Shown: piece by piece, positions 10,201 through 42,897 of the stretch
How the letters are laid out: the number at the start of each line of letters is the position of its first letter
How positions within the stretch are numbered: position 1 is the stretch's first letter
Source: an uncultured Methanosarcinales archaeon
GTDB taxonomy: Archaea; Nanobdellota; Nanobdellia; Woesearchaeales; BS150m-G63
Assembly: GCA_964630685.1 (NCBI GenBank)
Contig: CAZVVW010000002.1
Coordinates: forward strand, 25,559 to 89,558
DNA: 64,000 nucleotides
Direction: 5' to 3'
Notes under the pieces: generated by a model
Seen by the model: only the letters and a program-made list of their open reading frames with translations
Databases searched by the model: none
Told to the model about the DNA's origin: nothing
Made by a program: the position numbers and the translations under genes

Positions 10201-13200
10201 AATGTATGCATTTATACATCCACCATTTTCATATCTTCCTTGTTCATCACAGATATAAACTGTTACATTTTCTCCAAAAGGTTGGTCTGCGTCTGTCCAA
10301 GAGATGCTGAAAGTTACTTCTTCACCCACATTTGTGGGATTTGTAGAATTAGAATCTACCATTACTTCAGTTATATTTGGTGTTGTGCCACTTACTTCAT
10401 AATCATAAATATATCTGGGTTCTGAGAACACTTCTTCTCCATAGTTTGTGTCATCATAAGGAGTTAGTCCACATTTCCAGTAATCTCCTGCTAAAGTTTC
10501 TTCATGAGTTAATATTGAACCTGTTGTTACTGCCCATTCAAAATAACCAGAACCTTGGTCAACATACCACCTGTAGGTGATACTTGTGTTATTAAACATT
10601 TCATTATCACTATCTAAATCAGTTAAATTTGTGTAACTACAATTTAAGGTTTCATTATCTAAAGGATAAATGTCTGCAGGTGTGGAGTTATAAACTGTTA
10701 AGTTAGCACTATCTAAAGTTGGAAGATGATTGATGTAAATATTGTTGTTTTGTGCTAAGGAGTTATAATTATTGCTTCTTTCTGTTGAGTCATAGATGTA
10801 CACATAGTAAGATTGGTTTGTGATGTTATTGTTTAGATTTTCACTATCATAAGTGCAAGTGTATGGTGAAGTGCTTGTAGAGGATAATGTACAGAAAGCA
10901 GTATCAAGACATCCTTCTCTGTTGTGATTGGTTGAGTTACAGATAAATAATTCTACTGTTTCTCCGATATTTGAGTCATACCAGTTTACTGTGAAATTGA
11001 TGTTTGCTTCATATACTAATGGAGCTGTTGAATTAGTGTTTAATGCTACACTTGTTATTTCTGGGGTGATTTCTCCTATAGGTATTTCAGAGGAGATGTT
11101 TTCTGTGCTGTTTACATAACCATCAGATACAATAACTCCACATTTCCATGATTCTCCTTCTGCTGTGTGGTCTGAAGAAAGATTTTGAACTGAAGTGTCT
11201 GCGTCTATATTTTGCCAAGTTCCATTGTTGTATTTATACCAGAAGAAATATTGATCCTCTTCTCCTGCGTAATTGGATGCATTAGTGTTATCACCAGAAA
11301 GATTGAAATCTGCATCTGAGAATGTGTAATTACAATTCAAAGTTTCATTTGTGTTAAAGAAAGTTCCTCCAGAGGAATTTATTATTGAAGTGTTTTGTGC
11401 TGTCGGAACATGGTTTACAGAGAAAGTGCTTACATTTGCAGATGAACATAGGTTTGAATCATCACATATCATTACTGTGAAGTTTACTGTGCCATTATCT
11501 GTTGATTGTACTGTGTATGAAGCGTAAATTGGATTATCTGAAGTGAAATCCACTTCAGTGAAACCTTCATATTCACAACCAGCGTTTTCTATGATGCTGT
11601 CATTTTTACATACATAAGCTTCAACCAATTCTCCAAATGGTTGATCTGCATCTGTCCAATTTATTGCAAATGTCACAACATCTCCGACATTTGTTGGCTC
11701 TGTTGCTGTTGAGCTAGAATCTAGTGAAAGTATTTTTGGAGTTTCATTTACACCATACTGTGTAACTGTAACATTATCTGAGTCTACAGGAACACTGCAA
11801 GTGTAGTTATCACATGTTGTTACTGTACATTTCCATCTTTGACCTAATGATGTTTCTCCACTTACCAGTGTTTCATTGTTGGGATAATCATTTAGAAGTT
11901 GAAATCCTGAACCTTGGTCATAATACCAAGAGTAGTTGTAAGTGAGTGTTGCGTTTTCTGCATCATTTGCTGTGGCGCTACATTCAAGATTATTTGAAGG
12001 CTGAGGTGATGTTGGTGTTAAGTTTACTTCGGTAACTTCTGGTTTTCTGTTTAGATGAATTGTTCCTGTTTCAGTGTCTGAGTTTTCATCTTCATCATAA
12101 ATCCTCATAGTGTAATTGAATTGGGTGGTGTTTGCTGATGCTGTTGTCAATGTTGAGCTGTTGAATTCACAAGTTATAGGATCTGTTGTTGTAAAAGTTG
12201 TTGTGCAGTATTCTGTATTGGAACAGCCAGCAGAAGTTATACTAGAATCATTACAGATGAATAAAGTTACTTGAGCATCATTCCATTGTTCTGGGTCTGA
12301 CCAGTCAACTGTGAAGGTGATGTTTTCATTGAAAGTAATTGGTTCGCTTGAATTTGATCCTTGATATGTTGTTGATTGGATTGTTGGTGCATGACTTTCT
12401 ACAATTCCTTCAGCAGAAACTGCTGTGCTGTTTGCATAACCATCGTTTACTATTACTTCACATTTCCATTCATCTCCGTAAGAAGTGTAATCTGTGCTTA
12501 TTGTTTGTGTACTGAAGTCTTGTTTAACCCATACTCCCTGTACTTTTTTATACCAAGAGAAGTATTGGTCTGATTCAGTGTGGTAATCTGAAGAGTTGTT
12601 TCCTCCACCTGAAACATTATGATCTCCATCATCAAAAGTGTAATTACAACTTAAATCATCTGTTTCATTGATATAAGCACCCCCATTTATACTGACAGTT
12701 TCTGCTGTAGGGATATGATTTACAGAGAAATTGTAAGGTCCTTCAGCAGATGAACAATCATAATTTTCATTACAAACCATTGTGTAATAATTTAGGACGT
12801 GGTTAGTGTTATCTCCATAATCTTCATCTTCTGCTGTGTAGGTTATTGTTAATGGATTGTCTGTTGTCCATCCACTGTAACTGAATTGTTTTGAGCCAGC
12901 AGCACATCCTGTTTGAAGAATGTTTGAGCTGTTACAAATATAAGCCATTGCTGAAGTTGTGTTTGGACTTGCCCAAGATATTATGAAAGTGATATCTTCT
13001 CCAACGTTTGTTGGGTATGTTGCATTAGAATTATCTGTTGCATTTACTACGCTAGTTTCAGTTTCTGTTCCGGTTGATTCTGAAATGGTTATGTCGTCAG
13101 ATGTTTTTGATGTTCCATCTGAATATCCATCATTTGGTATGATTTCACATTTCCATTGATCGCCAAGTTCTGTTGCGCTGAAGCTTAATAAATTTGAAGT

Positions 13201-16200
13201 GTTGGATGTTGGACCATACTGCCAGTAAACTTGCCAATCACCTGAACGTTTTAACCACCATTTGTAAGTGTAAGTCATTGTGTCGTTGTCTGAATCTGTG
13301 GAATCATTAACTGCACATTTTATTGTTGAATCATTAGGAACATAATTTCCTGAGACATATGCTGAATTATTATAATAAGTGATATTTAGACTATTAACAA
13401 TAGGAATATGGTTTACAAAGAAACTATATCCAGATTGGTTTCTACAATCATAATCTGCACTACAGAATAAAAGATTATAATTGATTGGGCCATGACTGTT
13501 TGTTAAGTTGAATACAGGAGTATTTGTTCCTGGTGTAACTACTAATTCATCAACTTTAAAAATTGCTTGAGCTGGATTGTTATAAGTTACTGTTCTATTG
13601 AACTCATACCCCCAACAACCAGAGTTTCTTATGTGGGTATCATTATCACAGACATATAATTTTACATAATCATAAGGACCATCCCAAGTTACATTTACAA
13701 TTATGTCATCGCCTATATTTATGGGTGTAAGAGTTCCCGATTCATTATTAGAATTATCAGATACAGCCGTTATTTCTGGTCCACCACCGGTTTCTGGAAT
13801 GTCTTCACCTAAAGCAGCAGTTACATGGATTTCTGAAGAATTCTTTGATTCCCCATATTCCCATTCATCTATGGGTGTGATTTGACATTTCCATTCATCT
13901 CCTGGCATTGTGTTTCCATGAACTAAGATGTCGTTGTAATCATTATCACACCAAAGGAAATCATCACAAGAACTGAATTCTGTATCGCCGAATGGCTTTA
14001 CAAACCATTCATAAGTGTAATTGATTATTTCATTATAAACAGAATTACCTGTTGTAGCATCCCAGATTATGTCTTCTCCAGAATCATAATTATCATTTTC
14101 ATTTGTATCATGGAAATAACATCCAGTTAAAGAAGTGCCATTTGTTCCGCTACTTACAGATGAGAATTGGAGGATAGTTTTCCAATTTTCACTATTATTA
14201 TATATTAGGGTGTCAATATTATAATCATAATTTGAATCATCATTTACATCAATGTATGCTAGATTTGTATCATTACTGCAAGCCAAGATTGCAGTGCCAT
14301 TTTTTAGGTTTGAATCTTTTTGATTCCTAATATCTGCAAAAGGTGTTTCCCAACCATCTGCATCTATCATAATATCTGAAGTTGTGGTGTTTGTTAAATC
14401 TTGATCGCTTCCAGTTCCTTGAATACATTGGAGATTCCAATCATCATTTATATCTGAAGTGTATGTTAAACCTTCATTATAACTAAGATGATTTGTCCCT
14501 ATATTAACCCAGTTTAGTTTGGCTGCGTGGTTGACTGTGAAGTTGCCGTCTCTCCAGATTGAACATGCTCCACCAACATCACAGATTCTCATGTGGTATA
14601 TTACTTCACTATCATCTACATCTTCTGCTGTATAAGTACATGATTGTTGTTTGTCTGGGCTGTAGTCTGTTTCACAATAGGTTTTAGCCCCTGGACAGCT
14701 ACCAGTATCTGAACCAGAAGCTTTATAATTTATCCTTATATTTGCTTGATCATAATGAGGTCCTCCATCTGATGAGGTGTTATCATAAATAATTGAAGCA
14801 GAACCGGTTTCATGTGCAGCTACTTTTACTGAAGAATCATTATAAGGAATTTCTCCTGAAAGTAAACAGTTATCTAAGTATCCTGAATCTGCTACTTTTC
14901 CTGTTATTCCAAAAATTGTTCTAAATGCTTTACCTACCCAATTTATTAAATCCATTAGCCAGTTTCCTGTTGGTTGTATTCTTGCTGTAGCATAACCTAC
15001 TCCACCCATTTCCATGTCTTCTGAAAAAGCAGGGTCATTTGGATCTGCTATACAGAATTTTAGTGATGTGTATTTATCTGGCAATGGTTGGGCATTATAT
15101 TGCATAGTGAATGTTGTCCATTCTCCAACAGTAAAGGTGTTCCAGTCACTTCTTGCTATTCTCATTTCTGTTGAGCCATAATAATCTGGTACATGAGAAG
15201 TTGGAGAGTCAGTCATTGAAGTGTTGTCTGCTTCGTAAGCTATTATTGAAAATATGAAAGGGGTGTTATATCCTGAGGTGCTGTTTGTTATTCCATCAAT
15301 TATTGCTTGCCTTATTTTGATATCTACTGTGTCTATCATTAATCCTGTTTCATTTGTGTAAACATGAGCAAAATTTCCATCACCTCCAAAGGTGATGTTT
15401 TGGGCACAATAAGTGTCGTTATCACAGCTATAATCCTCTATACCTCCTGTTTTGTCACACACCACCATCATTGCTGATTCACCAACATCTGTGTCTAACC
15501 AATGTGAATCAAAGGTTACATCTTCTCCAACGTTTGTTGGATTGGTAGAGTTAGAATCATCTTCATAATCTATTAATTGAGGAATTGAGTTTCCCCCTAT
15601 TATTGTAACAGAAGAATTTTCATATTCATAATAAGTTGATCCATTAAGCCAAGTCCAATTTCTACTTGTGGAATTAAACCAAACTCTTTCATTATAACAA
15701 AGAGGATTACTCACCCAACTCTCATCATAATCACATACACTTATTGCACATTTTATTTTATCGTTTTGATCAAAATAATTATCTAATGTTGGATTAGTTT
15801 CATCTGGAACTTCAACAAAACTATTTATCCCTTCATTGTTAATGTACCATTTGTATGCTGTTGATTTATCATTAACTGAACCATATTCACTTTCAGTATC
15901 TAGATCAATATCATTAAATGTGAAATTACAAGTTAAGGTGTCATTTCCTAATGGATCTGTTGGAGTGACTTCTGCATTTGAAGCATAAGGTGCTGTGTTG
16001 TTTATTGCATACCATCGCGTGTCGCTGTTTTCTCCACTAGATATTTCAGGTCCATCTTCTTTCCCATCATTAGGAACCATTGCACAAGTGATTTTATCTC
16101 CTTTGAAAGTATGAGAATAACTTAACATAGCAGTACATTCCCAAAGATCTGGATTATCTACTATCCCTTCTTCACAATAGATATCATTTAAATTAGGATA

Positions 16201-17511
16201 CTGTGGAATAGTGTCGTTTGGACCTATTGGGCCCAGATTAATACATGTAGCATCCATATTTTCTTCTACATAATTTGTTCCGCCAGAGAATGTTGCAACT
16301 GTAAAAGTATATTTGGCAGTTATTTCATCATTATTTCCATCACACACAAAACCAGTACAATAGATATCATGAGCTGTTTGTGCGTGTCCTTTTAAGGGAT
16401 CGAGATAAATAGTATCATTTGCAAAATAGGGTTCTGCATTAAATGCTGCTGTTACTATTGCAGAATCATCTGATTCTTGGGTGCCGTCCCATGCAGTTAT
16501 GTAGAAATAGAATAAGGTTGTGTTATAATAGCTAGAGACATTCCAAGGTAGAGATGAACTTCCTAGGATGCCAGTAGTAGTAACGTTTCTGAATGATATA
16601 TAGGCTGGTGATGTGTAGTTCCAATGGGTGTTTTCAGAGACAATATTAGTATAATTCATTCCTGATTCTGCTGTTGCAGCGTAGATATAATAGCCTAAAA
16701 CATCATCTGTATCTCCTCCTGCTACACTAGTATCATCACCTACATTAGGTTCATCAGCAGATCTTGTCCAATTAATATCAATTCCTAATTCTCCTTGGTC
16801 ATCTAGATGGTCTGCTGCGTTAACATTTGTTGGAGGATCTGGTGCGTTATTATCTATAGTGGTTGCATTTATACAACTAGATTCGTTTTCATTACCTGAA
16901 GCGTCAACTGAAGTGACTTTAAAACCATAAGTGGTATTTACTTCCAGATTTTCCCAAGTAAAAGAAGAGATTCCTGCAGATACTGAATCATTATAGTTGT
17001 TATTTGTACATGATCCATTAGGGTGCAATTTTATCAAGTAATGGTCTATATAATTTATTCCTTGTCCATCATCTGAAGGTAAAGTCCAGTGTAAATCAAT
17101 TGCAGTTCCTTGATCATTTTCTGTATCTTCTGCATATAATCCTATTACTTCTTGAGGGGTTGTGTTATCTGAAGCAGTTGCATTCCCACTATCCGTATCT
17201 ATTAAACCATTTGTACTGTTATAAGAACTTACAGTGAAGGTATGTTCATTTGTATCTCCTGCAGTATACATATAATCCAGAGTCATACCATTTAGTACTT
17301 GTATACCGTCAATGTATAATTGATAACTTACTGCATTTGTATCATTTGTCCATTCTGCTTTTATTTGCAATTCGTTGTTTTCTTGGTTTTCTAATGTCAG
17401 ATCAGTTGCATTTACAGAATTAGTTAATAATATTAAAAATAAAGCCACAGCTATTAAGAAAACATAACTTTTAAGATTTACTTTCTCCTCTTTTTTTAGT
17501 GCTTTGTTCAT
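1288..17511 (-). CDS. Giant (5,407 aa) secreted, membrane-anchored surface protein; probably an adhesin or S-layer-like glycoprotein
   Basis: Uninterrupted 16.2 kb ORF. N-terminal signal peptide (KSYVFLIAVALFLILLTNSVNA). Extremely N/T/S/D-rich with a very high density of N-x-S/T sequons. About seven tandem ~220-aa repeats (PTNVGE.VTF..W ... WKC....DGY.NST). Five Cys-rich DCGGPC repeats. A single TM helix (IIPLNLIPYLIAIIVVLVAIIGFVL) followed by a ~200-aa charged cytoplasmic tail. Confidence 0.85.
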   Translation of the reverse strand: MNKALKKEEKVNLKSYVFLIAVALFLILLTNSVNATDLTLENQENNELQIKAEWTNDTNAVSYQLYIDGIQVLNGMTLDYMYTAGDTNEHTFTVSSYNSTNGLIDTDSGNATASDNTTPQEVIGLYAEDTENDQGTAIDLHWTLPSDDGQGINYIDHYLIKLHPNGSCTNNNYNDSVSAGISSFTWENLEVNTTYGFKVTSVDASGNENESSCINATTIDNNAPDPPTNVNAADHLDDQGELGIDINWTRSADEPNVGDDTSVAGGDTDDVLGYYIYAATAESGMNYTNIVSENTHWNYTSPAYISFRNVTTTGILGSSSLPWNVSSYYNTTLFYFYITAWDGTQESDDSAIVTAAFNAEPYFANDTIYLDPLKGHAQTAHDIYCTGFVCDGNNDEITAKYTFTVATFSGGTNYVEENMDATCINLGPIGPNDTIPQYPNLNDIYCEEGIVDNPDLWECTAMLSYSHTFKGDKITCAMVPNDGKEDGPEISSGENSDTRWYAINNTAPYASNAEVTPTDPLGNDTLTCNFTFNDIDLDTESEYGSVNDKSTAYKWYINNEGINSFVEVPDETNPTLDNYFDQNDKIKCAISVCDYDESWVSNPLCYNERVWFNSTSRNWTWLNGSTYYEYENSSVTIIGGNSIPQLIDYEDDSNSTNPTNVGEDVTFDSHWLDTDVGESAMMVVCDKTGGIEDYSCDNDTYCAQNITFGGDGNFAHVYTNETGLMIDTVDIKIRQAIIDGITNSTSGYNTPFIFSIIAYEADNTSMTDSPTSHVPDYYGSTEMRIARSDWNTFTVGEWTTFTMQYNAQPLPDKYTSLKFCIADPNDPAFSEDMEMGGVGYATARIQPTGNWLMDLINWVGKAFRTIFGITGKVADSGYLDNCLLSGEIPYNDSSVKVAAHETGSASIIYDNTSSDGGPHYDQANIRINYKASGSDTGSCPGAKTYCETDYSPDKQQSCTYTAEDVDDSEVIYHMRICDVGGACSIWRDGNFTVNHAAKLNWVNIGTNHLSYNEGLTYTSDINDDWNLQCIQGTGSDQDLTNTTTSDIMIDADGWETPFADIRNQKDSNLKNGTAILACSNDTNLAYIDVNDDSNYDYNIDTLIYNNSENWKTILQFSSVSSGTNGTSLTGCYFHDTNENDNYDSGEDIIWDATTGNSVYNEIINYTYEWFVKPFGDTEFSSCDDFLWCDNDYNDILVHGNTMPGDEWKCQITPIDEWEYGESKNSSEIHVTAALGEDIPETGGGPEITAVSDNSNNESGTLTPINIGDDIIVNVTWDGPYDYVKLYVCDNDTHIRNSGCWGYEFNRTVTYNNPAQAIFKVDELVVTPGTNTPVFNLTNSHGPINYNLLFCSADYDCRNQSGYSFFVNHIPIVNSLNITYYNNSAYVSGNYVPNDSTIKCAVNDSTDSDNDTMTYTYKWWLKRSGDWQVYWQYGPTSNTSNLLSFSATELGDQWKCEIIPNDGYSDGTSKTSDDITISESTGTETETSVVNATDNSNATYPTNVGEDITFIISWASPNTTSAMAYICNSSNILQTGCAAGSKQFSYSGWTTDNPLTITYTAEDEDYGDNTNHVLNYYTMVCNENYDCSSAEGPYNFSVNHIPTAETVSINGGAYINETDDLSCNYTFDDGDHNVSGGGNNSSDYHTESDQYFSWYKKVQGVWVKQDFSTQTISTDYTSYGDEWKCEVIVNDGYANSTAVSAEGIVESHAPTIQSTTYQGSNSSEPITFNENITFTVDWSDPEQWNDAQVTLFICNDSSITSAGCSNTEYCTTTFTTTDPITCEFNSSTLTTASANTTQFNYTMRIYDEDENSDTETGTIHLNRKPEVTEVNLTPTSPQPSNNLECSATANDAENATLTYNYSWYYDQGSGFQLLNDYPNNETLVSGETSLGQRWKCTVTTCDNYTCSVPVDSDNVTVTQYGVNETPKILSLDSSSTATEPTNVGDVVTFAINWTDADQPFGELVEAYVCKNDSIIENAGCEYEGFTEVDFTSDNPIYASYTVQSTDNGTVNFTVMICDDSNLCSSANVSTFSVNHVPTAQNTSIINSSGGTFFNTNETLNCNYTFSDADFNLSGDNTNASNYAGEEDQYFFWYKYNNGTWQNIDADTSVQNLSSDHTAEGESWKCGVIVSDGYVNSTENISSEIPIGEITPEITSVALNTNSTAPLVYEANINFTVNWYDSNIGETVELFICNSTNHNREGCLDTAFCTLSSTSTSPYTCTYDSENLNNNITNQSYYVYIYDSTERSNNYNSLAQNNNIYINHLPTLDSANLTVYNSTPADIYPLDNETLNCSYTNLTDLDSDNEMFNNTSITYRWYVDQGSGYFEWAVTTGSILTHEETLAGDYWKCGLTPYDDTNYGEEVFSEPRYIYDYEVSGTTPNITEVMVDSNSTNPTNVGEEVTFSISWTDADQPFGENVTVYICDEQGRYENGGCINAYIQAYAQTTNPITLTYTTTETDLSTSNYSIQIVDSDGQVSNYDNDSFAVNHKPNATTPLTIQIDEETLHCNFTYHESTFTTDRNDSEITNAQSDIYSFFEWYEYLNSNWTQLSETSRNLTMAFTGGEVIRCRVLVGDQWELTDTDFKNASNTTVIPAPTTPTLWPLDALNNNNAQITGYLPEDNVNNITIQAYAWQGYANPKDNSTTTLSTSTLKGTSAVIDTFETNSSFVVINNANHTHFNTTNYIEFANHDKEDFLRYQITEHQEIIPDESYRINISPVLNQTVPTGTIVYAYNSSEPQGWFNFTLNLHADDNTIKARAIKTIEGGYNLTGDWTSAEETFSDNENPAIGINDIPNYETSTTPTISFNLTDNYGINLPTLLLNITGTQNKTHVTSDTSYNTTEWSNLGDNISCTPTSSTNYDCQVVLNLTSGTYNLTFNINDSAENTFSTTKSNYWINSSPAPSEEFTVVRTTPEFNNTNLTFNVSIPQNISSNGTLQYTIGTAVYPNTGWNSITGWRNLTSFGTDEDYISYSNISSSWTNLSLYTNEDENLTLTPHTIYVANVRYQIYNWSLWSDVKTTQAMKYFPPYDVGTGPTAVNVTAPLYSFSPTIPISWTGSSDDKYDISYYVIAAGTAEYNESGWNDTQAQWLNAGNTLTHSLEFEANELTHQASYYFTIAAVNTIGKMSTPISSFGTTYYDQTPPTIEINSVANDTDSSDGWLDTNEDDITLINITADENSTCYYSLYDQDYADRDSTKGDKYCNATTEIIGINLTCNITDEDDEPLTQGNHTYYIICQDDREIPNEQSRDENTEINFTVNWPDEPVVDNLTIDIAIYTSSANERNLTNPAYALTNDVLFCNYISSDLDGNGTVDDSLTQYKWYIDGTEITGQTTDYLDLSVNGSAGDNIICEVNITDTTGLSSGFIQSNHSNFNSTVYINNSIPTTATQIAPINNTWHTDSIDFDWTDSTDADEDGINYTLYIYNSSEILESSNETSDSNITINLTDYSDNNYTWYIKSCDNSSFTNNCTESINLTFKVDQTSPTIDITSPTEDQSVGILVEFWANITDTLNQVVDYPTYEILNSSNETIASGFLISLNNQYYASWIPTGFTSGNYSIVITANDSLGNSGNSTRNFALDLLAPYIVVDPDEWEFRAQWLNNNSNLIMDSFVNSTNTTFGSPLNYSVNLSYNIYKTGTIIKTNSTENTSETFWWNHSIPLNTPDWTDGRYDVVFNVTDTLNNTVLLETWFVVDKTAPEYANQKITTSSNSSTVYNDDNVTLSIDWLNNMFIWDANENNIDKDRTTIIWTYNTSNSDVHQEMNLSSETLEFLDDTFFGTIPENETNKTETIYWKSISYDLAGNMRDTSNSSTNETYWFSFTVASETPVFNSTIADISWPEDTDYTNLTLSDYFSDADDNLTHTYTMYPKGLLLYDSLNNLTEIIDFNNGSYENINQENGINNNSILIQSEIENLLLNGDFNESTEDAEHVTTPQDWVRHSYPVYTHNAPPEYVTVNEHNYYSQLITVTENTNYTLSQYMATNSTQGNGRLHINWFNELYPTDETTNKTISYLGSTLDCESSQNCSGIIAITSTPDINESTSRRILTLTSPQESAYAQIVIDSDSNSTWVKIDKVQFEQKEYASTFLAEHRLPGKLTYPITSQYNVTRNNFNKEEGTIEMFIKPTWNGSETLNEDAVFFDIRLDEAIEDATPAVLTSGESPYIFTITANATPSEITGTAQEPFSVTPENNLFKVNISGEYSEINLSENPLIRIVLIQNLALTNLPSTIEAGTITTFTNLDDATYNISFTGPENLSTEDLSYGESFTHLFPTAGVYNYSFTLHPEVNGTFTVTEKTDYRNLTAEDVKTLLDMNLDNEIVNVSTSTNNSIKLETIETGSTKFIQILNGTANELLGFTNQIYTGADATTDNTLLEITISGDSYNISFSAGNLTVDKVVETINTEIPGLATADNTTFNLTTTTDGSSATIFIGDESANDVLGFTSNETEEGIDAVDDLFWLGRKDNKFVFGIREREDKAEINITNLNNQEWTFVAARWDEDTISLTINNEITTDNRTTSEELADIDNTTFNDLTIYIGSNGAQTEQANAYIDELAIYDYARSDTDLLNDYNNNSTIYLNGTYTTDGEINTTINESDSNNVTTTFSPFTDWFGYQRIRFFVNDSFTKIASNLLNLYVTPVNDAPRKVFGNETIENQSWWMDNSHTLDLSNYFHDIEDDELTYYEIYLTANYKIKASINGSIVTFTQPTGWNGEEKISFNVTDGEYWNSSNNIALNVYLNRIYNTTIDETDYNDSYGSDGTDLTTIYLAEIYDSTIYKEDTNLTTINESFINLSTIDESIIINDSTVFNSTINDSTLIRTTVLNSDIIHVTLTDTYVDGAFIDPSNVTNSNVTGSSRIIDSNVTDSNINNSNVTNSEIDNSDLYYSSVDLSTISNLILRYANVTNDFLNSGAVYNSDDEELWNTTNNGTTPLANITNYPPIITYFSLTESESQNNTYILSFRYNDSNLNYSFPDNITWTINWGEGTTSEGTNSSNPSESFTDSNTYSSSGNYTVTLTITDLYEQTVTQSETITITISSGTTQPSGGGGGNGLSGSTVMETIETCTDGIKNQDEMGIDCGGVCAACPGPTCYDGIKNQNEAGVDCGGPCYTACSTATCSDNIKNQGEEGVDCGGPCSACTVRATCSDNIQNQGEEGVDCGGPCSKCTTCSDYIQNQGEEGVDCGGPCSKCPKVEQPLFGIIPLNLIPYLIAIIVVLVAIIGFVLRGKLLPPKRPEIKPAEIKPTLIPVEGPAPITEQKPIKESKQEIKPAETKPKLKPVEQPSEEDKFKDLKKYVSTRLANGFNKNHIKQTLIIKGWPEEVLDVALDGSKELKDTLSTVENYINSSYAEGYNLEEIRQSLLEQGWSEGITDLLLFNVHKPHQDTKQLKAYINYKLSQGKTADEVKQLLQSVGWGKEVIDSVI
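1987..2364 (-). repeat. Five tandem ~27-aa Cys-rich repeats (C.D.I.NQ.E.GVDCGGPC..C) within the giant protein, membrane-proximal
   Basis: The DNA-level direct repeats (aaggtccaccacaatctaccccttcttccccttg...) are visible. The protein repeats are CSDNIQNQGEEGVDCGGPCSKC and variants. Confidence 0.8.
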
Positions 17512-18097: not shown

Positions 18098-18204
18098 GGG
18101 CCTGTAGCCTAGCCTGGGCAAAAAGAATCATAAATTCTTTTAGGGGCAAATAAGGCGACAGCCTTCTAAGCTGTAGATCGAGGGTTCAAATCCCTCCAGG
18201 CCCG
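18098..18204 (+). tRNA. tRNA-Arg (anticodon TCT) with a ~33-nt intron inside the D-loop
   Basis: GGGCCTG acceptor; D-stem GCCT/AGGC with a D-loop AGCCTGG[intron]TA; anticodon arm ACAGC-CTTCTAA-GCTGT; T-arm GAGGG-TTCAAAT-CCCTC; 3' acceptor CAGGCCC plus discriminator G. Confidence 0.8.
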
Positions 18205-18250: not shown

Positions 18251-19417
<1,167 letters not shown>

Positions 19418-21801: not shown

Positions 21802-22512
21802 TTATTTAGTTTTAGTTATCTTATTTTGTATTTTTTCTTTATCTATTTTTAAACCTTGCTTTTTGAAGAATCTAAATATGTTTTTTACGTCTCTTTCTAC
21901 CCATTCTTGAGCTATGGGGTTTTCAAGAGATGTTGCTTGAGATAAATCAATGAAAACTGGATAATCATTATAGTTTAATATATTGAATTCAGATAAATCT
22001 GAGTGAACATATTTGTTTTGATGTAATATTCTCATGTAATCTATTGTTTTATTGAAAAATTTTTTGATATCTTGAGGAATCATATCTTTTAATTTTGGGG
22101 CAGCTTCTTCATCCCCTATGAATTCCATTATCAATACATTATTTAGCACAGTTATTGGTTTGGGCACTTTGATCCCCATTTGCCTTATTTTTAACATATT
22201 ATAATATTCTCTTTTTGCCCATGCAAAAATTACTTTTCTTCTTTGTTTTTTTAGATTATCAAATCTTGGATCTGTTCTTATGTATTCATACATTCTATTA
22301 AAATCACAAGTTTCAAGACGATAGATTTTTACAGCGACTTTTTTATTATTTTTTGTTAAGGCAGAAAACACTTGAGCTTCTTTCCCTATAGATATTGGGC
22401 TTTGAAGACCTTCAATATGGCCTCTAGTGATCAATCTAAATAAAGTTCTATTTGTGAATTCATCAAATACCCCTCCATAGGTTTTGAATTTTTCTCTTGT
22501 TATTTTAGTCAT
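21802..22512 (-). CDS. rio1: RIO-type serine protein kinase (Rio1-like)
   Basis: SIGKEAQVF glycine loop, VAVKIYR lysine, HSDLSEFNIL catalytic loop; 236 aa with no N-terminal wHTH. Confidence 0.8.
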   Translation of the reverse strand: MTKITREKFKTYGGVFDEFTNRTLFRLITRGHIEGLQSPISIGKEAQVFSALTKNNKKVAVKIYRLETCDFNRMYEYIRTDPRFDNLKKQRRKVIFAWAKREYYNMLKIRQMGIKVPKPITVLNNVLIMEFIGDEEAAPKLKDMIPQDIKKFFNKTIDYMRILHQNKYVHSDLSEFNILNYNDYPVFIDLSQATSLENPIAQEWVERDVKNIFRFFKKQGLKIDKEKIQNKITKTK

Positions 22513-22632
22513 TTTAAGGGTTTTTATATAAATAAGTAAAATTGAGTGTTTTATAAGCTATATTCTTTATTAAAATGACAACATTTATAAACCTTAGTTA
22601 TTTATAATTTTTCATTCAATTGCTTAAATTGA

Positions 22633-22709
22633 GGCCCGTCACGAGAGTTACTCAATGGAGCTACGGCAAAGCCAAGCAATGAGCTTGGGAGTTCGTGTTT
22701 CGGGCTACA
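22633..22709 (+). ncRNA. GC-rich structured element in an otherwise AT-rich intergenic region; candidate single-hairpin H/ACA-like sRNA. Strand uncertain
   Basis: GCCCG..CACGA ... TCGTG..CGGGC closing stems and an inner CCAAGC-AATGA-GCTTGG hairpin. An ACA trinucleotide lies 2 nt 3' of the basal stem. Not compatible with a tRNA cloverleaf. Confidence 0.3.
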
Positions 22710-23018
22710 ATTATACTCATAAATAACAAAATAGAACAAGTAAATTATTATCATTATTATTAATTATTAAATTGTTTGTTGGGGAAAATAGGCCCTTGGT
22801 ATTTAGTAAATATGGAATCTTGTTCTATTTAAAATTGAATAAAATAATATAAAGTTAGAGTAAGTGAATAAGTTAAATAAATCAAAAGCTGTAAGAAAGG
22901 TATCATTATGTTTATCCATTATCCATCATTTGATTATTGGGAATATTTGTTTAAAGAGGATACTATTTCTGATTAAAGCAGCTTTAATATGAACTTATAA
23001 AATTACTGGAGGAAAAAA

Positions 23019-23048
23019 CAAGAAGACTTATTTCATTCGTCTTCAAGG
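23019..23048 (+). promoter_or_regulatory. Conserved hairpin motif CAAGAAGAC-N11-GTCTTCAAGG in the dnaG 5' leader (copy 2 of 3)
   Basis: Same asymmetric motif as at 26141..26166 and 42198..42221 (minus). It lies 36 nt upstream of the dnaG ATG and precedes a GGAGGT Shine-Dalgarno sequence. Confidence 0.5.
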
Positions 23049-23084
23049 TTTTTATAACCTCTCTAACTTTCGGAGGTAAAAAAC

Positions 23085-24365
23085 ATGGGAAAAATAAGTC
23101 CAGTAGCTGCAAAATATGTTGTACACGCTACTATTAAAATTGAAGGAGTTGTTAATAGACCTGATGTTGTTGGGGCCATATTTGGTCAAACAGAAGGATT
23201 ATTAGGATCAGATTTAGAATTAAGAGAATTACAAAGATCAGGAAGGATAGGAAGAATTGAAGTTAGTGTAGATACTAAAGGTGGAAAAACCGAAGGTAAA
23301 ATTGATGTTCCGTCTTCTTTAGATAAAGCAGAAACATCCCTTATTGGTGCAGCTTTAGAAATTATTCAAAGAATAGGTCCTTGTAATGCTAAGATTAAAA
23401 TTGATGGTGTCGAAGATGTTAGAGCTTCAAAACGTGGGGCCGTAATAAAAAGGGCTAAAGAATTATTAAGAAATATGATGGATGACGTCATGCCTGATAG
23501 TTTAGAGTTGGCTAATGAAGTTACTCATTCTGTAAGAGTTATGGATATCCAAGAATATGGAAAAGATAGATTAGCTGCAGGACCAGGAATAGGTGAATCT
23601 GACGAAGTTATTGTTGTTGAAGGCAGAGCAGATGTGTTAAATCTGTTAAAATATGGTATAAAAAATACTATTGCTGTTAACGGGACTTCTATTCCAGAAA
23701 CAGTTATTGGATTAAGTAAAGAAAAGACAATTACTGTGTTTGTTGATGGTGATCGTGGTGGAAAATTAATAATCAAAGAATTATTTGCAGTTGCAGATTT
23801 AGATTATGTTACCATGGCTCCTGATGGGAAAGAAGTTGAAGAGCTTACAAAGAAAGAAATACACCAAGCTTTGAGAAGTAAGATGACTGCAGAACAAGCA
23901 AAGTTAGAATTATTTAAACCTACTAAATCTACCAGTAGATCTATTGGGCAAACTAGGACAACTAGGCTTGTACGAAAACCTATACAGAGAACTTCAACTC
24001 ATCAAAGAACTCCTACTAGAAGACCTGCTCAACCTATAAGGCGTGCACCAGTTCCAAGAAAAGTGAGAATAAGTGTTGATGAAAAGAAATCTTTTAATGA
24101 TTTACTTAATGATTTAGTTGGAACACGTGGAGCTTCTATTTTGGATAAAAATTTAGAAGTTTTAGGAAAAGTACCTATAACTGAACTTTCTACTACTATC
24201 AAAAGTTTAGGTTCTGGAACTTATGCAGTTGTACTTGATGGAGTTATAGATAGTAATTTAGTTTATGCTGCAGAAAGGTCTGGAATTAAATTTTTAGTTG
24301 CTAGAGAAAGTAAGGTTAAGCCAACTGATAGTAGGGTTGGGATACTTGTTGCTGGAGATTTTTAG
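23085..24365 (+). CDS. dnaG: Archaeal DnaG-type primase (TOPRIM domain)
   Basis: N-terminal archaeal DnaG signature ([29 protein letters not shown]). [15 protein letters not shown] ... DGDRGG. Arg-rich linker. Confidence 0.85.
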
Positions 24366-25222
24366 CTGAGCAGAATCAGAAATAAATTTCCATGAATCAT
24401 AGTGACTATAAATGCTATTAAGAAAGATGGAACAAAAGGCATTCCATCTTTTATTAATATTTTTTTTATTTCCCCTTTTTTCCATAATTTAATTAATTTC
24501 TTTATTTGAGCTTCTTCAATACCTAAATCTTTTGGACCACAGATGTATTCTTTGTTAATTTTGATGTCTTTTACTATCCAGTCTCCTTCAGTTAGTTTGT
24601 CTGGAGTGACATACTTGTACATACATACTTTTTCAACTGCTTTTACAAATGCCCAAAGATAATAAGTGAAGTTTATTAGTAATACAAGCACTATCATAGG
24701 GATTATTACTGCAGGATTTCTTGAAAGAGCTAATAGTGTTGCAAAAATTAAAGAAACTACTAGTAAGTAAATTCTAGTCTTTTTTAATTTTTTATTTTTT
24801 AATATTTTTTTAAATGTTTTTGAAAATTCTTTTTTGTTTTTTATTGCTAAAGTGGTGCTCCAAATTAGCCCATAGATAGATCCTATTAACATAATATTTA
24901 TGAAAAATCCAAGTAAAAAATTATTGATTGTTAAATCTAACCCAATCAATGCCCCTAAACCCATTATCATCTTGCTATCTCCACCACCCCATTGACCCAG
25001 ACGATACATGAGATATCCTACTACTAAGAATGTCAGAAAACCAAGTAAACTTTTTATAATAAAAGAAGGATTTTTGAAGATTATTGAATAAATTGTATGA
25101 ATGCTCAATCCTGTGAAGATTAAAGAATAATTAAGCCAGTCAGGCACTTCTCTTGTTTTTAGGTCTGTAAATGAACCTATTATTAGAGCAACAATGCAAA
25201 TTGAGATAATTATTGGAAGCAT
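24362..25222 (-). CDS. A24-family type IV prepilin / preflagellin peptidase (PibD/FlaK-like) with a C-terminal extension
   Basis: Two catalytic Asp motifs ([11 protein letters not shown] and GGGDSKM). Polytopic TM protein. Confidence 0.7.
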
Positions 25223-25307
25223 ACTCTAATCACCTTTTTTATTCTATAGTGAAAAACTTTATAAAGTTTTGTGCTATATTATGTGTGTAAGGGGGGAGCG
25301 TTGATGA

Positions 25308-26015
25308 ATGTTAGATTTAAAGAAGAAAGTAGAAAAATCAAAGAATATTCCTAAACATATTGCTATTTCTATTAGGGGAGTTCGCGAATGGGCAGAAAAA
25401 AAGAAAAAAAATCTGAAGATTGCTCATAAAGAAAGTTTCCTTGCAATAAAAAAATTAATAGGGTTACAAACTAAATTAGATATACCTGTATTAACGTTTG
25501 ATTTATTACCATCCAAAGCAAAAAAAAGAGAAGATTTTCAAGAGATTATTGAATATTTGACTGAATTTTTTAGTGATTTAAGAGAATGGGAATTCATAGA
25601 AGAAAATCAAATTAAAATATCTGTATTAGGTAAATGGTATGATCTTTCAGGTGGATTGGTAGAGGAAATTAAAGACTTAACAATGGAAACCAAAGATTAT
25701 GATAGGTTTTTTGTTAATTTTTGTATTAATTATTGTGGGCAAGAAGAAATAGTTGATGCATTTAGAATTATAGCAAGAAAAGTTAGGGGGGATATACTTG
25801 ATCCAGATGCTATAACTCAAGAAGAAGTAAAAGATAATCTTTATAGTTCTTATTTTGTGCCTCCCGATACTATTTTATTGACTGGGGGAAAGAAAAATTT
25901 AGATGGTTTTTTGTTGTGGGATTGTGTTGGTTCTAGAATTGTTTTTTCTGATAAATTGTGGCCAGAATTTAAAGATGTTGATTTTATAGAAATAATCCAA
26001 AAGCTTTTTAAATAA
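25308..26015 (+). CDS. cis-prenyltransferase (UppS) fold protein with divergent catalytic motifs
   Basis: N-terminal PKHIAISIRGVREWA aligns with the UppS HxAIIMDGNRRWA motif but has RGV in place of DGN. The C-terminal LLTGGKKNLDGFLLWD aligns with RTSGE.RLSNFLLWQ. Confidence 0.5.
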   Translation: MLDLKKKVEKSKNIPKHIAISIRGVREWAEKKKKNLKIAHKESFLAIKKLIGLQTKLDIPVLTFDLLPSKAKKREDFQEIIEYLTEFFSDLREWEFIEENQIKISVLGKWYDLSGGLVEEIKDLTMETKDYDRFFVNFCINYCGQEEIVDAFRIIARKVRGDILDPDAITQEEVKDNLYSSYFVPPDTILLTGGKKNLDGFLLWDCVGSRIVFSDKLWPEFKDVDFIEIIQKLFK

Positions 26016-26039
26016 ACCTGTTTTTCTAGTATTTAACCT

Positions 26040-26093
26040 GTGATTGATGAAGGCTTTGGCCTGAATGAGGGGTTTTCTAATCCCAATCATCAC
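26040..26093 (+). promoter_or_regulatory. K-turn / C-D-box-like element upstream of the L7Ae gene
   Basis: GTGAT...ATCAC terminal complementarity enclosing TGATGA, CTGA and ATGAGG motifs. Archaeal L7Ae autoregulation via a 5'-UTR K-turn is established. Confidence 0.3.
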
Positions 26094-26140
26094 TTAAATT
26101 AAAAAAACTTAATATTGAGGGAGAAAATAAGGCAAGAAGT

Positions 26141-26166
26141 AAGAAGACTTAAAAAACGTCTTCAAG
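26141..26166 (+). promoter_or_regulatory. Conserved hairpin motif AAGAAGAC-N9-GTCTTCAAG in the L7Ae leader (copy 3 of 3)
   Basis: Direct reading: taagaagacttaaaaaacgtcttcaag. Followed by a GGAGG Shine-Dalgarno and the ATG at 26191. Confidence 0.5.
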
Positions 26167-26190
26167 TCTTATTCCTTGGAGGAAAATAAG

Positions 26191-26526
26191 ATGAGTGAAT
26201 TATCAAAAGAACTTATAGATAATGTGTTTGAAGCAATTGAAATTGTAAAAGGTACTGGAAAACTTCATAAAGGAGTTAATGAGGTTACTAAAGTTATTGA
26301 AAGGGGCGATGCTAAATTAGTTGTGGTGGCTGGAGATATTAGTCCTGCAGAAATTACTATGCATTTACCATTACTTTCAAAAGAAAAAGGAATAAAGTGC
26401 GTTACTGTTGATAAGAAAGAAGAACTTGGAGCAGCTGCAGGATTGGGAGTTTCTACTGCTGCAGTAGCAATAGTGAAAGAAGGAGACGCAAAAGATTTGA
26501 TTAAAAAAATAAATAGTCAACTATAG
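26191..26526 (+). CDS. rpl7ae: Ribosomal protein L7Ae. The start is taken at the ATG with a GGAGG Shine-Dalgarno; the ORF track begins at TTG 26176
   Basis: KLVVVAGDISP..ITMHLPLLSKEKGIKCVTV..KEELGAAAG matches the L7Ae/L30e fold. Confidence 0.85.
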   Translation: MSELSKELIDNVFEAIEIVKGTGKLHKGVNEVTKVIERGDAKLVVVAGDISPAEITMHLPLLSKEKGIKCVTVDKKEELGAAAGLGVSTAAVAIVKEGDAKDLIKKINSQL

Positions 26527-31730: not shown

Positions 31731-32498
31731 ATGGCACAAGAAACAATTGAAATCCTTATTGAAGGTGGAAAAGCAAGCGCAGCACCACCATTAGGTCCTG
31801 CTTTAGGTCCTATGGGTGTTAATATTGGTGAAGTTGTTAATACAATTAATAAAAAAACAGCTACATTTAAAGGAATGCAAGTACCTGTTAAAGTTATAAT
31901 TGATACTGAAACTAAAGCTTATGAAATTGAGATTGGTACTCCTCCAGCTAGTTCTCTTATTAAGAAAGAAGCAGGAGTTAAGAAAGGAGCAGCTAATCCC
32001 TTAACTGATAAAGTTGCAGATTTGAAAATAGAGCAATTAATTAAAATTGCAAAGATGAAAGAAACCGATTTACTTGGTAAAACTTTGAAGGAGAAGATAA
32101 GAGAAATTGTAGGAACTTGTCAATCCATGGGAATTCTTGTTGAAGGAGTTCTTGCTCATGACGCTTTTAAGTTAATTGAAGAAGGTAAATTTGATAAAGA
32201 AATCAGGGAAGAGAAAACAGAAATTAGTGCAGAAGAAATGAAAGAATTAGAAGAAGAGAGAGCTAGATTGGCTGAAGAATTGAAAGAAAGACGAGAAGAA
32301 TTCTTAGCTAAAGCAAAAGAGATTGTTGGAGCTATGCAAGGAAAAGAATCTAGTGAAATAAAAGCTAAATTGAAAGAAGCAGAATTGCCTGAAGAAATTA
32401 TTAAAGAAGTAATGCCTGCTGAAGAAGAGAAACCTGCTGAAGGCGGTGAAAAACCTGCTGAAGGCGGTGAAAAACCTGAAGGCGAGAAAAAGGATTAG
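31731..32498 (+). CDS. rpl11: Ribosomal protein L11 with an unusual ~90-aa charged/coiled C-terminal extension
   Basis: N-terminal PPLGPALGPMGVNIGEVV L11 signature to ...GTCQSMGILVEG (~165 aa), then a K/E-rich extension ending EEKPAEGGEKPAEGGEKPEGEKKD. Confidence 0.8.
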   Translation: MAQETIEILIEGGKASAAPPLGPALGPMGVNIGEVVNTINKKTATFKGMQVPVKVIIDTETKAYEIEIGTPPASSLIKKEAGVKKGAANPLTDKVADLKIEQLIKIAKMKETDLLGKTLKEKIREIVGTCQSMGILVEGVLAHDAFKLIEEGKFDKEIREEKTEISAEEMKELEEERARLAEELKERREEFLAKAKEIVGAMQGKESSEIKAKLKEAELPEEIIKEVMPAEEEKPAEGGEKPAEGGEKPEGEKKD

Positions 32499-32536: not shown

Positions 32537-32941
32537 AGTAATACATTAGAAACCCACGAGAAAAAGCAAGGAATCTTTTTTGATGGACAAGTGTTTGATG
32601 CTTACACTTTTGTTTCTGATTTAATACAAAAAGCTGAAAAAGAGATTATTTTAATTGATAATTTTATTGATGACTCTGTCTTAACATTGTTTTCTAAAGT
32701 TAATAAAAATGTGAAAATAAAAATGTATACTAAAAATATCTCTAAACAACTAAAATTAGATGTTGAAAAATTCAATGAGCAGTATGGTCGGATTATTCTT
32801 AAAGAGTTTAATAAAAACCATGATAGGTTCTTAATCATTGATTCAGAAGTTTATCATTTTGGTGCTTCTCTTAAAGATCTTGGTAAGAAATGGTTTGCTT
32901 TCTCTAAGTTTGAAAAAAAAATCTATAAATATATTAAATGA
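32537..32941 (+). pseudogene. Open reading frame with no upstream ATG (the track starts at GTG 32591); possible 5'-truncated gene remnant
   Basis: The frame is open from 32537 with no in-frame ATG. It contains an H-x-R-x4-D-x5-GAS segment (HDRFLIIDSEVYHFGASLKDLGKK). It interrupts the expected L11-L1-L10-L12 gene order. Confidence 0.3.
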
Positions 32942-41845: not shown

Positions 41846-42080
41846 TTACAACAACCCTATAAAAATAAGAAGTACCTGCAGATTGACTCGCTCTAGTTAT
41901 TTTTATAATATCTCCTTCTTTAGTTTTAAGATTTTCTATTGATGTGTCTTTTATTGATATTCTGGGTAAATTTCCTGTAGAAGCATTGTATTTTTTTAAT
42001 AATTTTTCTTTTTCTTTTTCATTTAATTTAGTATGAATTGGAACGAGAACGTGTTTTGATGTGTCAAAGTTTTTTTTCAT
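41838..42080 (-). CDS. rpoH: DNA-directed RNA polymerase subunit H
   Basis: 80 aa with a HVLVPIH...L motif; first gene of the rpoH-B-A operon. Confidence 0.8.
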   Translation of the reverse strand: MKKNFDTSKHVLVPIHTKLNEKEKEKLLKKYNASTGNLPRISIKDTSIENLKTKEGDIIKITRASQSAGTSYFYRVVVND

Positions 42081-42157
42081 TTTAGGTAGTGGTCTGACAA
42101 TGTTTTTTTGTTGTCTTTATATGTTTTTTGGTTTAGTGATGAATTTTGGATTATAAC

Positions 42158-42274
42158 TACAGTTTCGGCTGGGGTTTGCAAAATTTGTTTTGCTAATCCT
42201 TGAAGACGAAGTCTTCTTGAGCTACCGATAAGCGATATAAATCAATTGCGTTGATTTAATCCCTTTACATACCC
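42158..42274. repeat. Repeat copy A (ctacagtttcggctg ... agcgatataaatcaa-N5-ttgatttaatcccttt ... ttgattaatt) in the rpoH operon leader
   Basis: Shares roughly 60 nt of near-identical flanks with copy B at 42769..42874. Contains the TTTATAT box and the GAAGAC hairpin. Confidence 0.7.
42198..42221 (-). promoter_or_regulatory. Conserved hairpin motif CAAGAAGAC-TTC-GTCTTCAAGG (UUCG-type tetraloop), ~120 nt upstream of rpoH (copy 1 of 3)
   Basis: Read on the minus strand: CTCAAGAAGACTTCGTCTTCAAGGATT. Confidence 0.5.
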
Positions 42275-42331
42275 ATTGATTAATTACTTTTTTTTAAAAG
42301 TAATCGTGTTTTGTTTGTTTTTGATTATAAA

Positions 42332-42460
42332 TGGGCCGGACGAGATTTGAACTCGCGACCACTTGATTTCTTGATGTCATATTGCTTGACACTTAAAAGT
42401 CAAGTGCTCTATTGCCCACATTTGGCAATTAAATGCTGTTCCAGGCTGAGCTACCGGCCC
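42332..42460 (-). tRNA. tRNA-Lys (anticodon TTT) with two introns: ~29 nt in the D-loop and ~26 nt in the anticodon loop
   Basis: Minus-strand parse: GGGCCGG-TA-GCTC-AGCCTGG[AACAGCATTTAATTGCCAAATGTGGGCAA]TA-GAGC-A-CTTGA-CTTTTA[intron]A-TCAAG-TGGTC-GCGAG-TTCAAAT-CTCGT-CCGGCCC-A. Confidence 0.75.
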
Positions 42461-42874: not shown

Positions 42875-42897
42875 GCTTTGATTGAAAAGAAAAATGA

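Follow-up and report, generated by a model that had tools for sequence, protein, structure and literature searches.

Three copies of a short hairpin motif, H, lie 5' of dnaG, the L7Ae operon and rpoH in a 64,000-nt stretch of archaeal DNA (the window). With roughly even confidence, we interpret H as the core of a miniature palindromic insertion element, comparable to REP or MITE sequences and specific to one lineage, a small, uncultured clade of marine Woesearchaeota. Close relatives, species that lie about 10% apart, differ in whether H is present at orthologous sites, and filled sites consist of H, a variable filler and a duplicate of the preceding 13-17 nt (35 nt in one case). Presence/absence, locus-specific duplication, one decayed copy and restriction to a small clade together form the signature of inserted mobile DNA and not of a conserved regulon signal. 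The ancestral H is about 21 nt long, AAGAAGAY-TTAC-RTCTTCAAG, and its insertion in front of the three genes is most likely recent.

The window comes from an uncultured Woesearchaeota (DPANN) archaeon with a G+C content of about 31%. Its sequence is part of a 111-kb metagenome contig (JGI 3300007511, Ga0105000_1000228) and was also recovered from several other samples. By L11, the nearest named genomes are Woesearchaeota/Nanoarchaeota MAGs of at most 72% identity; the 79 GTDB loci retrieved by L11 (at most 72% identity), none of which has dnaG or L7Ae nearby, were used as a background set only. Syntenic congeners with 84-95% protein identity to the window were obtained from exact-protein look-ups: L136/L143, a single 92-kb contig (DnaG 90%, RpoB'' 89%); L141 (RpoB'' 91%); L144/L145 (RpoB'' 84%); and L086 and L140, which belong to the same NCBI metagenome assembly, GCA_014874595.1 (L7Ae 95%, DnaG 89%). 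L270 (DnaG 70%), L272 (69%) and L274 (RpoB'' 79%) served as outgroups. Pfam places DnaG/Toprim (23085-24365) on the plus strand, followed by L7Ae (26191-26526), S28e, L24e, NDK, EF2, FtsZ, SecE, Spt5 and L11, and on the minus strand RIO1 and the series RpoH (Rpb5_C; 41838-42080)-RpoB''-RpoB'-RpoA'-RpoA''-L30e-NusA-S12-S7. Over 19.5 kb aligned between the window and L136 (blastn, default scoring parameters), other large intergenic indels were few.

The pattern AAGAAGAC-N(11/9/3)-GTCTTCAAG has exactly three matches in the window, all on the sense strand. Copy 1 (AAGAAGAC-TTATTTCATTC-GTCTTCAAG; 23020..23047, plus strand) has an 11-nt loop and lies 38 nt 5' of the dnaG ATG. Copy 2 (AAGAAGAC-TTAAAAAAC-GTCTTCAAG; 26141..26166, plus strand) has a 9-nt loop and lies 25 nt 5' of the L7Ae ATG. 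Copy 3 (AAGAAGAC-TTC-GTCTTCAAG; 42199..42218, minus strand) has a loop of only 3 nt, so that its 10-nt arms abut, and lies 119 nt 5' of the rpoH ATG. The initial annotation had reported the copies at 23019..23048, 26141..26166 and 42198..42221, one to three flanking bases away from our limits, and its naming of the three genes agrees with Pfam. It was also right that the motif is not random, because no match arose in 100 dinucleotide-preserving shuffles of the window and the three copies are the only GAAGAC...GTCTTC inverted pairs there; single half-sites showed no enrichment in the window. The pattern search that it had proposed yielded no further copy in 82 kb of the source contig, where the total is three, and a relaxed scan gave a fourth, near-match within a gene only in the Lys/Glu-rich C-terminal coding tail of S3Ae (48231-48254, AAGAAGAG-N7-CTCTTCAAG), where the peptide ...KEEKKSLQD... 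accounts for the sequence.

The arms of the window copies extend to 10+10 nt, AAGAAGACTT-N-CGTCTTCAAG, with 8, 6 and 0 nt between them in copies 1, 2 and 3. As had been noted, only loop length varies: there are no changes over 51 arm positions, whereas the adjacent duplications differ at one to four positions. Folded as RNA, H has a 6-bp stem, GAAGAC/GUCUUC, under the variable loop and, at the stem base, a 2x2 A.A/A.A internal loop whose closing pair is C-G in copies 1 and 3 and U.G in copy 2. The flanks read (C/T)AAG...CAAG(G/T), with the unpaired AA...AAG and the loop ends (T...C) conserved. Conservation of non-palindromic flanks, another earlier claim, applies to this non-complementary AA...AAG but not to the outer C...G, which occurs in copies 1 and 3 only and is T...T in copy 2. 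H is a weak hairpin: the leaders that contain it fold no better than shuffles (z -0.5 to -1.7), and no Rfam family matches it at E<=5. We rejected H as a k-turn, as it has no 3-nt bulge and, in all registers, the G.A/A.G positions are Watson-Crick (G-C, A-U) or the 3' strand has no GA; as an integron attC site, CRISPR repeat, dif site or bulge-helix-bulge motif, it does not fit in size, spacing or context. GAAGAC, a BbsI-type restriction site, is neither avoided nor enriched in the window (31 sites compared to 23 expected).

Comparison with relatives resolves the dnaG leader of the window into the left flank found in L136 and L140, 65 added bases (23020..23084, plus strand) and then ATGGGA. 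The added bases, absent from both congeners, comprise H, a 24-nt filler GTTTTTATAACCTCTCTAACTTTC (23048-23071) and a duplicated SD segment GGAGGTAAAAAAC (23072-23084), and end exactly at the ATG. The upstream member of the duplication pair GGAGGAAAAAAC / GGAGGTAAAAAAC lies at 23008..23019 (plus strand) and equals the lone SD-spacer of L136 and L140, in which the empty sites read ...TTACTGGAGGAAAAAAC-ATGGGA (L136, DnaG 90% identical) and ACTGGAGGAAAAAA-ATGGGA (L140). Copy 1 sits directly before the dnaG start, in a divergent intergenic region, with T5 (GGTTTTT) after its stem. The outgroup L270 carries two H copies 5' of dnaG, AAGAAGAT-TTAC-ATCTTCAAG and AAGAAGAT-TAAC-GTCTTCAAG, flanked by GGGAAAATAAAAT / GGAGGAAAATAAAAT; GGGAAAATAAAAT, before the first copy, duplicates the segment from SD to start, GGAGGAAAATAAAAT(G). 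In the second L270 copy, the filler is partly like that of the window (GGTTTT..., ...TTCG..TAAAAAAC) in a comparison that was made manually, a MAFFT alignment of the insert units having been misled by the loops. The dnaG copy may be ancestral, with loss in both L136 and L140, or may have been inserted twice at the same kind of site. Because the congener identities are near-equal (87-90%), either history needs two events, and the insertion in the window is therefore indistinguishable from precise loss in L136 and L140.

At L7Ae, a 59-nt insertion (26132..26190, plus strand) that again ends exactly at the ATG is absent from L086, L136, L270 and L272, whose leaders have the conserved leader element, a single SD and the ATG, without a hairpin. 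It is made up of GCAAGAAGT, H, TCTTATTCCTT and the duplicated SD segment GGAGGAAAATAAG (26178-26190). Alignment with relatives locates the upstream, partly decayed copy of this target, GAGGGAGAAAATAAG, at 26117..26131 (plus strand); in the pair GAGGGAGAAAATAAG / GGAGGAAAATAAG, as at dnaG, the duplicated SD segments measure 13-15 nt. A metagenome scan of L7Ae gave, among the matches listed, one close relative (L086) and about 50 distant leaders, and among the approximately 50 leaders so compared H was found in the window species only. Separate from H, a k-turn/box C/D-like stem-loop (UGAUGA...CUGA) common to many Woesearchaeota lies at about 26038-26093 in the L7Ae leader. An autoregulatory role of L7Ae would fit this stem-loop and not H; the insertion adds about 60 nt to the distance between the k-turn operator and the functional L7Ae SD.

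Further members of the family occur upstream of the L7Ae leader, at the end of UPPS. In L086, the stretch from UPPS to the L7Ae promoter contains AAGAAGAC-GTAAC-ATCTTCAAG with a direct repeat of 35 nt on either side (33/35 identical; p=0.001 when compared to random positions of the window), and L136 has a decayed relic of H, AAGAACTATTCAAG, at the equivalent place. L270 has AAGAAGAG-GGGT-ATCTTCAAG at the UPPS end, where it is read as C-terminal codons (...NKKRGIFKP*) and is flanked by TCCAAACGATTTTTAAC / GCCAAAAGATTTTTAAAT. L270 and L086 resemble each other in the bases that follow the hairpin (CCATAAATCTTTCTAAATAAG vs CCAAAAATCTTTTTAATAAC), so the insertion at the UPPS end is an old one. In the window and L272 the target occurs there once and without interruption, as the L7Ae TATA region overlapping the UPPS stop, implying that in the window H was either lost precisely or never present at this place.

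The rpoH-side insertion, of about 47 nt (H + GATTAGCAAAACAAATTTTGCAAACCC; 42172..42218, minus strand), interrupts a copy of a repeat associated with tRNA 3' ends. H and 27 bases split the repeat as ...GATTAAATCAAC-N4-TTGATTTATATCGCTTATCGAAGCCTA|CAGCCGAAACTGTAG; the uninterrupted form, ...TATCGAAGCCTA-CAGCCGAAACTGTAG, is found in four other copies (one in the window, one in L143 and two in L141). The repeat as a whole is missing from L141 and L144 at the rpoH site, and H is absent from the rpoH leaders of L141, L143, L144 and L274. Target duplication at copy 3 was not significant. A TATA-like segment, CATATAAAGAC, conserved in L141 and L143, lies about 40 nt before the rpoH ATG and 3' of the hairpin, with copy 3 80-100 nt 5' of it. 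Because this conserved promoter is downstream of copy 3, the copy falls outside the rpoH leader unless it is transcribed from further upstream. Placement of H in gene leaders, as the initial annotation had it, is therefore plausible for dnaG and L7Ae, where promoter-like TATA segments suggest that copies 1 and 2 are probably within 5' UTRs, but not for rpoH. Its broader proposal, a signal common to replication, transcription and ribosome genes, does not survive the comparison, given the absence of H from dnaG in L136 and L140, from L7Ae in L086, L136, L270 and L272 and from rpoH in the four relatives just named, and given that the window copies are 47-65-nt insertions with a duplicated target, the rpoH copy lying inside another repeat.

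Across the clade, AAGAAGAN-N(2-14)-NTCTTCAAG had 10 matches in 210 kb, compared to one in 1.34 Mb of other Woesearchaeota loci, an enrichment of about 60-fold; reversed-sequence controls gave 0 and 2 matches, and 2 of the 10 clade matches are the S3Ae coding motif (window 48231 and L144). The relatives hold three to four non-coding copies, and H also occurs in them at unrelated places, the 3' coding ends of UPPS and of a tRNA-deacylase gene. Every copy (three in the window, L086, three in L270, L136/L143) lies on the sense strand with respect to its neighbouring genes, in line with the orientation first described for the window. Arm spacing is 1-2 nt in relatives and 0, 6 or 8 nt in the window. 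Covariation, which had been put forward as a check, was seen at the top stem pair (C-G; U-A in L270-A; A-U in L143; U.G in L270-B), with compensation at that one pair only. The loops are related (TTAC, TAAC, GTAAC, TTC, TT-A6-C), from which it follows that the whole unit of about 21 nt was copied from one source. The bases following H tend to reverse-complement those preceding it, as in GGAGGaAAAAAC/GTTTTTataaCCTCT at dnaG and AAAGATTTTT/AAAAATCTTT in L086; individual p values for flank complementarity range from 0.008 to 0.56, and their Fisher combination is about 0.005. Searches for the fillers elsewhere returned only chance 10-13-mers, and IMG/VR pattern scans for H only single unrelated matches (one in a contig of 49% GC). 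No long element bounded by both 10-nt arms was found in 1.56 Mb of archaeal loci or in IMG/VR, nor any transposase, integrase, RAYT-like or Y1_Tnp Pfam domain among the called genes in 82 kb of the source contig.

We infer that H would be moved in trans by an enzyme that recognises, on one strand, the hairpin in folded form together with its unpaired AA/AAG flanks; such recognition would account for arms that are constant, loops that are free to vary in length and an orientation that is always the same. A staggered cut in the target, once filled in, would produce the duplication. The palindrome may later have been extended outwards by template-switch correction of quasipalindromes, a known mutational process, which would account for post-H sequence reverse-complementing pre-H sequence. 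The sites before dnaG, L7Ae and rpoH would then be places where insertion is tolerated or targeted (A-rich SD/TATA segments) and would not reflect common regulation. Since the preceding segment is duplicated, an insertion just 5' of a start codon restores the SD, and one at a TATA box restores the promoter. In the window, two insertions stop exactly at the start codon, and in one relative an insertion lies on the TATA box, so restoration of the signal may be the reason that these insertions survive. As a side effect, the 5' UTRs of dnaG and L7Ae would have gained a stem-loop and a spare SD.

Among known systems, H appears to behave most like a REP or a very small MITE. With bacterial REP/RAYT sequences it shares an imperfect palindrome of 20-40 nt (the three window copies and those of relatives are 20-28-nt repeated palindromes, mostly extragenic), a conserved non-complementary 5' flank, a variable loop and features of strand-specific recognition of a folded single strand. 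REPs too lie between genes, are confined to particular lineages and can influence mRNA although they are not essential. Unlike REPs, H has AAG...CAAG in place of the hallmark 5'-GTAG, has target duplications of 13-17 bp (up to 35 bp), which are not reported for REPs, and has a far lower copy number in an archaeal (DPANN) host with no RAYT/Y1 gene found in 82 kb. The likeness to MITEs lies in non-autonomous short insertions with inverted repeats, target-site duplications, presence/absence polymorphism and intergenic or promoter insertion; flanking duplications (not significant at copy 3) and empty sites in relatives were both observed. MITEs are usually 50-500 nt long, whereas the shared unit of H is only about 21-28 nt. 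H further departs from them in its non-complementary outer bases, its unique fillers, the lack of a parent IS in 1.56 Mb of archaeal loci or IMG/VR, and a duplication that far exceeds the 2-10 bp usual in IS-derived MITEs. Casposase target duplications are about 14-15 bp and the repeat duplication of Cas1-Cas2 is about 30 bp, so that casposons and off-target Cas1-type integration would give similar lengths of duplication around inserted DNA. Casposons, however, are kilobases long with long TIRs, whereas H is the same short hairpin each time, and we saw no Cas1 or casposon genes. A k-turn stem-loop in the L7Ae 5' UTR is autoregulatory (Daume et al. 2017, PMC5539422; Huang, Ashraf and Lilley 2019, PMC6298567). 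H is likewise an RNA stem-loop near the Shine-Dalgarno sequence of an L7Ae leader, but it has neither a 3-nt bulge nor tandem G.A/A.G pairs (G4-C and A5-U are Watson-Crick), and no relative has it in the L7Ae leader, where the conserved element (26038-26093) is a separate one.

The mobile-element reading has its own difficulties: copy number is low, and only the hairpin is shared while the fillers are unique, which is unusual for copy-and-paste elements. A mobile unit of 20-28 nt with target duplications of 13-17 bp has no match among described elements. Moreover, the divergence of the targets at one to four positions beside unchanged arms requires either that the arms are under selection or that gap filling is error-prone. 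Selection is the core of an alternative to which we give a minor but real share of the probability, that H is a cis-acting RNA hairpin (an RNA-binding protein site, or a stability or translation element) recruited repeatedly and possibly of mobile origin. Sense-strand orientation of every copy, conserved unpaired flanks and loop ends, the covarying top pair, invariant arms next to diverged duplications and the probable 5'-UTR location of copies 1 and 2 all favour it, as does L270, in which H precedes dnaG at the same SD-ATG-proximal place with a partly similar filler despite only 70% DnaG identity and may be an old, retained copy. The sense-strand-only copies and the two L270 copies before dnaG fit a selected RNA function equally well. 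The ends of REP/RAYT and IS200/IS605 elements are recognised as single-stranded DNA by a strand-specific enzyme, and orientation, conserved flanks and loop ends, unchanged arms and the L270 dnaG copies are equally expected under such an enzyme or under RNA selection. The earlier suggestion of an RNA-level element or directional protein site is thus borne out in so far as orientation and flanks fit recognition of RNA or ssDNA in a folded, single-stranded form, or a directional site, but not as a conserved leader signal. H is absent at all three sites in congeners and was retained or re-inserted before dnaG only in L270, which is not the pattern of a cis-regulatory regulon signal; its absence from orthologous dnaG, L7Ae and rpoH leaders at 84-95% protein identity shows that these genes do not need it. 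Also contrary to a selected RNA are the decayed orthologous copy in L136, the position of copy 3 upstream of the conserved rpoH promoter, the members in coding 3' ends of unrelated genes, and a stem of only 6 bp, in leaders that fold no better than shuffles, that bears no k-turn signature and matches nothing in Rfam.

The constant arms with variable spacing (0, 6 and 8 nt in the window, 1-2 nt in relatives), their direct abutment in copy 3 and the flanking target duplications would also suit an excision footprint, in which the two 10-nt ends (AAGAAGACTT..., ...CGTCTTCAAG) of a departed cut-and-paste transposon remain with its target duplication. We consider this improbable, as the loops are related and not random, the outermost arm bases are non-complementary (AA vs AAG), extra unique filler separates the hairpin from the right-hand duplication, and neither the 1.56 Mb of related loci nor IMG/VR gave a full-length element with H ends; we know of no prokaryotic transposon that leaves such scars. 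A little less probable still is that H is a terminator or insulator hairpin, or the DNA operator of a dimeric transcription factor, between transcription units. T-runs follow copy 1 (GGTTTTT), L270-A (CTTTATTTTTT) and the L143 copy at a gene 3' end (ATTTTTT), and two relatives' copies lie at the UPPS 3' end just before the L7Ae promoter. Nevertheless, H does not fit an intrinsic terminator, which has a G+C-rich stem, a loop of 3-8 nt and a T-run right behind the stem (T5 follows copy 1 only; copies 2 and 3 have no T-run), a terminator scan of 22500-26300 flagged neither copy 1 nor copy 2, copy 1 directly precedes the start of dnaG between divergent genes, and sister species have no H. A dimeric operator of fixed geometry would not allow the spacing of half-sites to range from 0 to 8 nt between the 10-nt arms. 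That the three copies arose by chance in an AT-rich genome we regard as negligible: AAGAAGA and TCTTCAAG are common in Lys/Glu-rich coding sequence, which accounts for the two matches at window 48231 and in L144, but the shuffles (0/100) and the clade enrichment of about 60-fold with its controls refute chance.

We return, then, to the insertion element as the preferred reading. A more specific version of it, which we offer only tentatively, is that H is an undescribed archaeal mobile hairpin of about 21 nt, inserting strand-specifically into A-rich SD-ATG/TATA signals at cuts 13-17 nt (up to 35) apart and so duplicating ribosome-binding sites or promoters, with some copies (that of dnaG, maybe kept across about 30% protein divergence) domesticated as RNA elements.

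The case is a caution for motif-based prediction of regulons, since a motif found in three informational leaders of one genome is not conserved in the next species. DPANN genomes are tiny and streamlined, and, as far as we know, their mobile DNA and gene regulation have hardly been described. If the insertion reading is true, a miniature hairpin element would remodel even the most conserved neighbourhoods of such a genome, those of primase, RNA polymerase and the ribosomal operons. Copying a ribosome-binding site or promoter on insertion would be a simple route to spare expression signals, and new 5'-UTR structure would arise along with it, including an L7Ae SD moved away from its k-turn operator.

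Two hairpins with compensated stems in related genomes are candidate variants of family H, the short palindrome, probably an insertion element, found in the window upstream of dnaG, L7Ae and rpoH. In the syntenic congener, whose single 92-kb contig supplies loci L136 and L143, the hairpin AAGAAGAA-ttaaagaa-TTCTTCAAG (L136 1719-1743, minus strand; L143 20043-20067, plus strand) forms the final codons of a tRNA-deacylase gene and has a T-run after it. The second, AAGAAGAG-taaaaaaa-CTCTTCATG, lies on the plus strand of the outgroup locus L272 (10247-10271), between L24e and NDK and inside a longer palindrome of an A-tract and a T-tract.

The 5' leader of L7Ae contains a conserved stem-loop that resembles a box C/D element or a k-turn (window 26038-26093, plus strand; CCUGUGAUUGAUGAAGGCuuuGGCCUGAAUGAGGGG...CCCAAUCAUCAC); upstream of it, a TATA-like CTTTTTAAATAA (about 26004-26015) overlaps the stop codon of UPPS, the preceding gene. 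A search of Rfam did not detect this stem-loop. The pattern ACCUAUGA..AUGA-hairpin-GAAUGAGG recurs in the L7Ae leaders of many Woesearchaeota, and the window element is probably the published L7Ae autoregulatory k-turn (PMC5539422, PMC6298567).

In the spacer between RIO1 and dnaG, a conserved block of about 80-100 nt (window about 22630-22712, plus strand) is a candidate small RNA. It is nearly identical in L136, where a single C/T change separates the two sequences over about 100 nt. The outgroup loci L270 and L272 keep the block too; its flanking sequence diverges. The block is preceded by ATTTATAAACC and its 3' end reads ...GGGCUACAA; because of this ACA tail, the candidate RNA is possibly H/ACA-like. 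Rfam returned no match to the block, and no compensatory pairs have been seen so far. Further along the same spacer, directly upstream of the dnaG promoter region, lies an ORF of 22 codons with a Shine-Dalgarno-like GAAAGG (22908-22976, plus strand; MFIHYPSFDYWEYLFKEDTISD), which is conserved in L136 as MIINYPLFDYWKHLFKEDTISD and has no recognisable counterpart in L270 or L272.

A single minus-strand ORF of 5407 residues (1288-17511) gave weak fibronectin-III matches and nothing else; giant surface-type proteins of this kind are typical of DPANN archaea. L11 (255 residues; 31731-32498, plus strand) continues at its C-terminus for about 100 residues past its two Pfam domains, and its length is preserved among relatives at 251-264 aa. 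The 116-residue ORF that follows it (32591-32941, plus strand) had no match in a Pfam search, and at its position L136/L143 have the tRNA-deacylase gene, of 272 residues. An (ATT)n trinucleotide microsatellite of about 14 units (19340-19385), located where two minus-strand genes adjoin, exceeds the L136 run in length. An (AAT)n microsatellite at about 10730-10780 of L266/L267, loci from two samples of one species, differs between the samples by 27 nt.

Intron-containing tRNA genes and a tRNA-like gene occupy window 42332-42460, 42898-43019 and 42470-42660 on the minus strand and 18144-18204 on the plus strand. The intron-containing genes, 122-129 nt long, were detected by Rfam and missed by ARAGORN under all models; the intron of the gene at 42332-42460 is 26 nt longer than in L143 and in L141, from another congener. 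Between two of them sits a third gene, tRNA-like, that seems to be interrupted by an insertion at a non-canonical position; its Rfam match is partial (18 bits, 42528-42584).

Another repeated element, roughly 70-110 nt long, lies 3' of tRNA genes on the minus strand (window about 42157-42331 and about 42765-42895) and recurs in relatives (L141 8800-9320, as three tandem copies; L143 9440-9560; L136 5289-5404). It reads ...AATCAATGGGTATGTAAAGGGATTAAATCAAC-N4-TTGATTTATATCGCTTATCGAAGCCTACAGCCGAAACTGTAG, carries a TATA-like box, and is followed downstream either by a duplicated tRNA 3' end (for example TCCAATCCGGCAGCGGGGA) or by a short direct repeat (TTATAATCNAAAA). The repeat stands beside a tRNA in L136 but is absent from the window counterpart (about 18231). 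This repeat resembles a miniature integrative element, or the remnant of one, aimed at tRNA 3' ends.
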